Counted from the stretch's first letter, positions 53,543-53,950 are shown. The stretch: DNA of 64,000 nucleotides from Escherichia coli (GCF_001677475.2 NZ_CP015229.1); one strand, 5' to 3'. Notes: generated from the letters alone by a model not told the origin. Translations and numbers: made by a program.

Positions 53543-53950
53543 ATGAAAATGGTTGAAGTTGTTGCCGCCATCATCGAACGTGATGGCAAAATTTTACTCG
53601 CGCAACGCCCCGCGCATAGCGATCAGACGGGATTATGGGAGTTTGCCGGTGGTAAAGTCGAGCTGGATGAAAGCCAGCAGCAGGCGTTGGTGCGTGAGTT
53701 ACGCGAAGAATTGGGCATCGAAGCAACTGTTGGTGACTATGTTGCCAGCCATCAGCGAGAAGTGTCGGGGCGGATTATCCATCTTCATGCCTGGCACGTA
53801 CCCGACTTCCACGGGACGTTACAGGCACATGAACATCAGGCGCTGGTCTGGTGCTCACCTGAAGAGGCGCTGCAATATCCGCTGGCCCCTGCTGACATTC
53901 CACTATTAGAGGCGTTTATGGCTTTACGCGCCGCCAGACCAGCGGATTAG
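53543..53950 (+). CDS. nudG: Nudix hydrolase (CTP/dCTP pyrophosphohydrolase)
   Basis: 135-aa ORF; Nudix box GGKVELDESQQQALVRELREELGIE. Confidence 0.8.
   Translation: MKMVEVVAAIIERDGKILLAQRPAHSDQTGLWEFAGGKVELDESQQQALVRELREELGIEATVGDYVASHQREVSGRIIHLHAWHVPDFHGTLQAHEHQALVWCSPEEALQYPLAPADIPLLEAFMALRAARPAD

Follow-up and report, generated by a model that had tools for sequence, protein, structure and literature searches.

The convergent genes nudG and ynjH of Escherichia coli share their last 35 nucleotides. We consider it probable (about 80%) that this is a genuine and ancient tail-to-tail dual-coding overlap, which would be maintained by protein-level constraint on both strands and would not be a dedicated regulatory device. 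The pair lies in a 64,000-nt stretch of E. coli DNA (hereafter the window), which runs collinear with the K-12 MG1655 genome (offset 1,787,947). The overlap itself is real, ordinary and already known, as it is present in the reference annotation and in a published list of excludons. What is new here is the depth of its conservation and a base-level account of its length.

An earlier reading of the window made from the sequence alone (the sequence-only reading) described the two genes, their coordinates and a 35-nt convergent overlap. The list of open reading frames (ORFs), the sequence and the RefSeq annotation of K-12 all agree with this description. The K-12 layout is the same (b1759 at 1841490..1841897 on the plus strand, b1760 at 1841863..1842135 on the minus strand), and the RefSeq arrangement in the strain closest to the window is likewise identical. 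The 101 nt spanning the overlap were found in 5,416 of 5,426 complete E. coli genomes. The final 11 codons of nudG are antisense to the final 11 codons of ynjH in such a phase that the first codon positions of the two genes face each other, the second position in nudG faces the third in ynjH, and the third in nudG faces the second in ynjH. The coordinates of all features are collected in Table 1.

Table 1. Features of the nudG-ynjH locus and related features (window coordinates unless K-12 is specified)
Feature	Position	Strand	Description
nudG	53543..53950	+	135 aa; from the ORF list and the sequence; RefSeq b1759; Nudix hydrolase for CTP, 5-hydroxy-CTP and (p)ppGpp
ynjH	53916..54188	-	90 aa, GTG start; RefSeq b1760; DUF1496 protein with a hydrophobic, signal-peptide-like N-terminus
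ynjH stop TAA	53918-53916	-	read downward on the minus strand
nudG stop TAG	53948..53950	+	its middle base, 53949, doubles as the YnjH Thr80 (ACT) wobble base
Dual-coding overlap	53916..53950	both	35 nt; NudG F125-D135 and stop / YnjH T80 (part)-P90 and stop
YnjH Val88 codon GTA	53925..53927	-	GTT or GTC would make TAA or TGA at nudG codon 128
In-frame TAA	53954..53956	+	two codons past the TAG; codon 138, the stop position used in 55 of 78 loci (TGA or TAA; overlap of 41 nt)
Inverted repeat, left arm ATCCGCTGGCC	~53877-53888		arms of 11-12 nt; the repeat brackets the ynjH stop
Inverted repeat, right arm GACCAGCGGAT	53937-53947 (from 53936 in the 12-bp stem)		
ynjF	52836..53462	-	same strand as ynjH; downstream of any ynjH read-through across antisense nudG
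Sigma-28 (FliA)-type promoter into ynjH	54223..54250	-	TAAAGTTA-N12-ACCGTTAT; K-12 has TAAAGTTT
Published ynjH FliA motif TAACGTTATTGTCTCTGCTACTGATAAC	54200..54227	+	Fitzgerald et al. 2014, Table 2; one mismatch in the window
ynjI	~55884-56924		K-12 1843831-1844871
cho	35568..36455	+	
ves	36415..36990	-	
cho/ves overlap	36415..36455	both	41 nt
ves FliA promoter motif	37070..37043	-	
ES036 (CssrF) sRNA	35418-35460	+	Rfam, at gathering score; just upstream of cho
STnc540 sRNA	7427-7579	-	Rfam, at gathering score
Phe leader	11420-11544	-	Rfam, at gathering score; upstream of pheS

Both genes have independent support as protein-coding genes. NudG matches the Pfam NUDIX family over residues 2-125 (E = 5.7e-22) and matches a solved structure, PDB 2RRK, over its full length. 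YnjH matches DUF1496 over residues 33-89 (E = 2.3e-24) and has 408 homologues. The three features expected of a convergent overlapping coding pair were all found: both genes are real, the 3' nucleotides are common to them, and the arrangement is conserved among orthologs. The sequence-only reading had named re-annotation of stops or starts as the result that would remove the overlap. Such an outcome cannot apply here. A 3' overlap is not removable by moving a start, because the stop codons are set by the sequence, and both C-termini are conserved at the protein level in 76 related loci.

With an alignment of 16 YnjH sequences we retrieved 80 loci, those of the closest relatives of YnjH in species-representative genomes. 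These loci cover Escherichia, Salmonella, Citrobacter, Enterobacter, Lelliottia, Kosakonia, Phytobacter, Atlantibacter, Buttiauxella, Siccibacter, Yokenella, Trabulsiella, and other genera. A recognisable nudG was found in 78 sequences, namely the window, the E. coli reference loci L001 and L002, and 75 of the 80 fetched loci. The two genes are convergent and overlap by 26-41 nt in 76 of the 78 loci carrying both. Most often (55 of 78) the overlap is 41 nt long, NudG has 137 aa, and its stop is TGA or TAA at codon 138. An overlap of 35 nt with TAG at codon 136 is present in 17 loci, including the window and the E. coli or E. coli-like loci L001-L004; three loci have 38 nt. The single overlap of 26 nt originates from a Val84Ile replacement in YnjH. 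No overlap longer than 41 nt was found among the 78 loci with both genes. In all the overlapping loci 373 nt separate the nudG start from the ynjH stop, with no insertions or deletions. Judging by this comparison, the overlap appears to be old, with conservation across dozens of enterobacterial genera. As for the other ends of the genes, ynjH starts with GTG in Escherichia and with ATG in most other genera examined, and the NudG start is one codon earlier in most other genera (M-L-K-T… vs M-K-M-V… in E. coli).

Two loci with both genes have no overlap. The genes of C. koseri are separated by a 6-nt gap; since the same assembly also splits gdhA and ynjF, we rejected this case as a true exception and regard the gap as probably an assembly error or a pseudogene. 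In a metagenome-assembled Pluralibacter genome other DNA lies between the genes; the last NudG residue there is 130 (…AFITAKR), and behind ynjH come a strong hairpin and a T run, i.e., a normal terminator. Among the five fetched loci without nudG, one retains an internally deleted remnant, and in the other four the gene facing ynjH is xthA, 3 to about 100 nt away. In some Enterobacter-like genomes (L068:2770-2774, L071:2701-2705) the DNA between ynjH and xthA is missing and the 3' end of xthA is 3 nt away. With xthA, which encodes exonuclease III, ynjH again has a DNA-repair gene as its convergent neighbour.

To see which protein constrains the shared bases, we calculated per-site entropy as a mean over the 76 loci, split by codon position. 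At positions 1/2/3 it equals 0.50/0.34/1.35 in nudG alone and 0.52/0.35/1.17 in ynjH alone. Within the overlap the values are 0.19/0.20/0.77 if it is read as ynjH and 0.15/0.61/0.21 if it is read as nudG; that is, the ynjH periodicity is kept and the nudG periodicity is inverted. The dominant constraint on the shared bases thus comes from YnjH. Its C-terminal STNPLVWRRV (S79-V88) is invariant or nearly so in the alignment of 16 sequences, and the NudG tail varies by middle-base replacements (M/K/R/T, A/L/V/S, R/H/L/P, A/D/G/V). According to the structural models, the YnjH side of the overlap holds the invariant end of DUF1496 with its last beta-strand at 83-88 (pLDDT about 80 for residues 45-90). 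The NudG side comprises the last six residues of a predicted C-terminal helix (116-130) and a disordered tail of five residues (model pLDDT 92.6, below 50 for residues 133-135).

NudG does not seem to be a free passenger in the overlap and apparently adds a constraint of its own. The codon of YnjH Val88 is GTA in 64 of 76 loci, GTG in 12 and GTT or GTC in none; valine codons elsewhere in the two genes are GTT or GTC in 44% and GTA in 9.6% of cases. With GTA at Val88, NudG has Leu128. On a neighbour-joining tree, about ten changes are reconstructed at this wobble site, and every one is between A and G. For YnjH Val84, 62 of 76 loci have GTC, the codon that makes NudG residue 132 Arg. At the six wobble sites of ynjH opposite NudG residues 128-134, a mean of 8.5 changes is inferred, compared to 16.2 at twelve other four-fold ynjH sites (one-sided Mann-Whitney p = 0.006; the codon statistics count related species partly as independent and the tree rests on nudG and ynjH themselves, so p-values are approximate). 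The wobble site of Thr80, which faces the dispensable NudG residue 136, has 23 changes and shows all four bases across the 76 loci, so that residue 136 is Ser, Trp, Leu or a stop. Where nudG is not yet stopped, ynjH codon 78 ends in T or C and thereby creates the nudG stop: all 16 Leu78 codons in this class are CTC or CTT, which make up 22% of leucine codons elsewhere. Part of the low wobble variation, such as CTG at Leu83 and CCG at Pro82, could reflect ordinary codon preference and not selection on NudG.

The length of the overlap can be accounted for by reasoning from the sequence through each dipeptide of the invariant YnjH tail. A nudG stop requires T at position 1, i.e., the next ynjH codon starting with A, and A or G at position 3, i.e., T or C as the second base of the facing ynjH codon; the middle position of nudG codons coincides with the wobble position of ynjH codons. 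The invariance of YnjH N81-V88 rules out a nudG stop at any of codons 129-135. A stop is possible at codon 128 (Val88-Lys89), where it would cut the helix, and it was never observed there. Beyond the forbidden stretch, a stop is possible at codon 136 if Thr80 is ACT and is followed by Asn81, at codon 137 if Ser79 is TCT, as in Phytobacter, and at codon 138 if codon 78 is NTY and Ser79 is AGY, which is the solution of most relatives. Escherichia coli uses codon 136, the earliest of 136-138. NudG would need roughly the residues up to 130 and YnjH those up to 88-89, and the first legal stop beyond this is predicted at codon 136. The 35 nt of E. coli are then the shortest overlap allowed, because the joint constraints of NudG and YnjH leave codon 136 first. 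Most plausibly, the E. coli TAG arose from TGG, which occupies the same position in other Escherichia lineages (…ADWC).

We found no intrinsic terminator near the overlap in a scan of 53300-54500, and a G+C-rich hairpin with flanking A and T runs, which would make a bidirectional intrinsic terminator, is absent from the overlap. A search of the whole window against Rfam gave no match at the nudG-ynjH locus (matches elsewhere in the window are listed in Table 1). On the plus strand, 53900-54060 folds no more stably than shuffled sequences (z = +1.2).

From the sequence and published RNA-seq we infer that the ynjH and nudG mRNAs must each end inside the other gene, since the two genes leave no gap between them and lack a recognisable intrinsic terminator. 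The RNA evidence consists of gene-level read counts from one study (strand-specific total RNA-seq of Huang et al. 2020; PMC7373196, Table S1c). The sense/antisense reads per million (RPM) in the wild type, rnc-14 and rnc-38 are 8.99/45.36, 3.81/29.19 and 5.58/16.99 for nudG; 79.97/2.69, 78.97/0.94 and 27.40/2.48 for ynjH; 7.90/19.15, 6.44/21.98 and 5.70/34.60 for cho; and 156.66/4.70, 173.02/1.85 and 244.65/8.56 for ves. Antisense reads thus exceed sense reads on nudG 3-8-fold in the three libraries. By our arithmetic, the read density on ynjH is about 0.29 RPM per nt, so the 35 shared bases would yield only about 10 RPM; the antisense signal on nudG must therefore reach well past the coding overlap. 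The sigma-28-driven ynjH transcript, about nine times more abundant than the nudG mRNA, most likely runs antisense well into nudG, and such run-through would explain the excess of antisense over sense reads there. In the same study, p19-captured double-stranded RNA on nudG amounts to 6-35 RPM (gene-level counts, single libraries). The sequence-only reading had suggested that convergent overlaps can couple expression through transcriptional interference. Its premise, overlapping transcripts, is borne out by the published listing of the pair (PMC12288877) and by antisense against sense counts of 45.4 vs 9.0 RPM on nudG and 19.2 vs 7.9 RPM on cho. The transcript overlap is real but generic. The searchable E. 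coli Term-seq tables (Adams 2021 supplements) name no 3' ends for nudG or ynjH.

The promoter of ynjH is of the sigma-28 type. In most genera a sequence of the form TAAAGTT(T/A)-N12-ACCGTTAT occupies the corresponding place upstream of ynjH. The gene has both features of the FliA regulon, namely a promoter resembling TAAAGTTT-N11/12-GCCGATAA oriented into the gene and FliA-dependent RNA (29 in the wild type vs 2 in a fliA deletion). The FliA dependence is conserved in Salmonella STM1300. The motif published for ynjH by Fitzgerald et al. 2014, a weak site with FAT score 1, points toward gdhA, away from ynjH, and the minus-strand promoter TAAAGTTT-N12-ACCGTTAT (54250..54223) fits the reported centre of the ChIP peak better; the published motif call probably names the wrong strand. 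At three positions of this region, 54222, 54238 and 54243, the window and K-12 differ. One difference turns the -35 element from TAAAGTTT into TAAAGTTA, and another is just past the -10 element; the promoter alleles of the window are also present in L001 and L003. A sigma-54 site linked to nudG (PMC4591121) is located inside ynjE, 1.3 kb upstream, and was set aside as irrelevant to the overlap.

These data bear on two readings that give transcription the leading part. According to one, the overlap is kept as a functional convergent excludon: the genes repress each other by polymerase collision or by RNase III cleavage of the duplex, and activation of ynjH by sigma-28 in motility lowers nudG. 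The pair is indeed listed in the published MG1655 excludome alongside cho-ves and ynjE-ynjF (PMC12288877). The antisense excess on nudG in all three libraries, the capture of double-stranded RNA there in spite of only 9 RPM of sense RNA, and the conservation of both the sigma-28 promoter and the overlap across genera all agree with this reading, and selected regulatory coupling would also predict the strict conservation of the pair. However, protein constraint alone accounts for that conservation. In gene-level counts from single libraries (PMC7373196), nudG sense RNA shows no rise in the absence of RNase III; it falls to 3.8 RPM in rnc-14 and 5.6 RPM in rnc-38 vs 9.0 RPM in the wild type. Moreover, nudG is absent from the supplements of RNA-seq studies of fliA deletion, and no paper naming both nudG and fliA turned up in the literature searched. 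Overlapping 3' ends occur at 75% of convergent operons anyway (PMC4161252). In addition, ynjI, located 116 nt from gdhA, likewise has more antisense than sense reads (9.7 vs 5.8 RPM); because it shows the same pattern, the antisense excess follows from a weak gene facing a stronger one and not from a coding overlap. We therefore regard mutual repression as an unlikely reason for keeping the overlap, though one with an appreciable chance of being right. The other reading is a noncontiguous operon, in which the ynjH transcript crosses the whole of antisense nudG into ynjF, so that ynjH and ynjF are co-transcribed. The minus-strand order ynjH, antisense nudG, ynjF, uninterrupted by any terminator that we could find, would allow this, the read density steps down along it (about 0.29, 0.11 and 0.03 RPM per nt by our arithmetic), and ynjF is syntenic in most loci (56 of 82 scanned, two E. 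coli reference loci included). But falling density fits gradual termination equally well, 19 loci hold gdhA-ynjH-nudG without a ynjF match inside the fetched sequence, the supplements searched do not name ynjF as FliA-dependent, and ExcludonFinder (PMC12288877) has three E. coli cases on its list, of which this locus is not one. We consider co-transcription of this kind improbable.

The remaining two readings would replace the proteins as the conserved object or dispose of one of them. A hidden RNA element, either a bidirectional terminator or a stabilising 3' stem-loop, might be what is conserved. It could be sought in the inverted repeat ATCCGCTGGCC/GACCAGCGGAT around the ynjH stop, which forms a 12-bp stem in the minus-strand fold (z = -1.9). 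We rejected this stem as a functional element: its left arm is conserved only in Escherichia and Citrobacter and is replaced by TATGATTTAGCC in Enterobacter, Lelliottia and others, where pairing is impossible. In addition, neither strand has a U run behind the stem; the terminator scan, Rfam and the plus-strand fold give no support; and the variability of sites tracks codon periodicity and not the stem pattern. The RNA-element reading is largely refuted, and its chances are very small. The arms of the repeat encode "YPLA" in NudG and "NPLV" in YnjH, a likeness at the tripeptide level that is probably a coincidence. An annotation artefact, with one ORF not being a gene or a stop being misplaced, is suggested by little except that ynjH is short (90 aa) and starts with GTG, which adds to the general unreliability of short ORFs. 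Against this, NudG is solved at full length (2RRK), the YnjH domain reaches residue 89 of 90, and ynjH has hundreds of homologues, FliA-dependent RNA and coding periodicity. The probability of an artefact is negligible.

Convergent genes with little or no space between them are commonplace in the window. The K-12 annotation contains nine convergent pairs within it, with the following 3'-to-3' distances: ydiE/selO, 3 nt; yniD/ydiY, 52 nt; yniA/yniB, 40 nt; tcyP/ydjO, 3 nt; katE/chbG, 257 nt; cho/ves, -41 nt; ynjE/ynjF, 8 nt; nudG/ynjH, -35 nt; and gdhA/ynjI, 116 nt. Two of the nine overlap and three more are at most 8 nt apart, so in five of the nine a terminator would not fit between the two stops. 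In the case of gdhA/ynjI, Adams et al. 2021 report a Rho-dependent 3' end antisense to ynjI at 1844252 (+); this end and the antisense reads on ynjI are consistent with read-through from gdhA across the 116-nt gap.

The second overlapping pair, cho/ves, had also been pointed out in the sequence-only reading, and its position proved correct. Hot spots of p19-captured double-stranded RNA are listed inside both cho and ves. In both overlaps of the window, the minus-strand member (ves, ynjH) is FliA-dependent and of unassigned function, and the plus-strand member (cho, nudG) belongs to DNA repair or nucleotide sanitation. This pairing may be a coincidence. A bolder reading is that antisense transcription driven by sigma-28 would serve, as a conserved device, to restrain genes of genome maintenance. 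The product of nudG clears oxidised CTP and dGTP and hydrolyses (p)ppGpp, that of cho is an SOS excinuclease, and both genes have more antisense than sense RNA (PMC7373196). If the brake existed, motile cells would lower their output of NudG and Cho, and the flagellar programme would be tied to mutation rate or alarmone levels. We regard this idea as improbable.

The near-universal presence of the overlap in E. coli is accompanied by variation around it. Only 13 of 5,423 complete E. coli genomes are at least 99% identical to the window over 53400-54450. In comparison with K-12 (L002), the window has 15 differences in a stretch of about 210 nt in the 5' half of nudG (about 7%). They result in six amino-acid changes, including P41L and R46Q inside the Nudix box. 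The region ~53766-54221, which covers the 3' part of nudG and the whole ynjH, has a single difference, at 53903. This mosaic of a divergent 5' half and a nearly identical 3' part suggests recombination.

The overlap has practical consequences. Insertions or deletions at the 3' end of either gene would alter both, because 35 nt are common to nudG and ynjH; likewise, whoever deletes, tags or recodes the 3' end of one gene also changes the other. Both genes have attracted functional work: ynjH mutants were enriched among low c-di-GMP cells in a 2026 screen that linked YnjH to the RdcA/RdcB-DgcE system (PMC13031359), and hydrolysis of (p)ppGpp by NudG is reported in PMC5845004. Published ynjH knock-outs and transposon hits from motility and c-di-GMP screens may therefore also affect NudG, and the reverse, so that screens of this kind could be confounded. 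The locus is a clean teaching case of how the invariant residues of one protein set the positions where an antisense gene can stop. It also offers single-base synonymous changes for direct tests of dual coding.

Many short gene overlaps are thought to be young and to arise by the loss of a stop codon. Unlike these, the nudG-ynjH overlap is conserved over dozens of genera, and its length appears to be set by the YnjH dipeptides that permit an antisense stop. It resembles the bacterial tail-to-tail overlaps covered in the review by Wright, Molloy and Jaschke (Nat Rev Genet 2022) in having a short opposite-strand 3' overlap with less variable shared sites. ExcludonFinder (NAR 2025, PMC12288877) names nudG-ynjH and cho-ves in its Table 1 as convergent excludons of MG1655. 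As in other listed excludons, the genes are convergent neighbours with 3'-overlapping transcripts in at least half of 58 transcriptomes. That list is based on RNA-seq coverage and not on demonstrated reciprocal repression; the mean intergenic distance of the listed pairs is 95 nt, whereas here the coding sequences themselves overlap, and the RNase III data for nudG-ynjH, gene-level counts from single libraries, lean against repression. The arrangement of same-strand ynjH and ynjF around opposite-strand nudG also recalls the noncontiguous operons published for three E. coli loci (PMC12288877); the ynjH-ynjF locus is absent from that list, and the likeness is one of geometry. Conway et al. 2014 (PMC4161252) found overlapping 3' ends at 276 of 370 E. 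coli convergent operons, with a mean of 286 nt. The nudG-ynjH pair is similar to such convergent units as dnaQ-rnh and ilvA-ilvY in its probable inefficient termination and complementary 3' ends. Units of that type usually have a terminator between the genes, often a leaky one, whereas nudG and ynjH have neither intergenic DNA nor a recognisable terminator between them.
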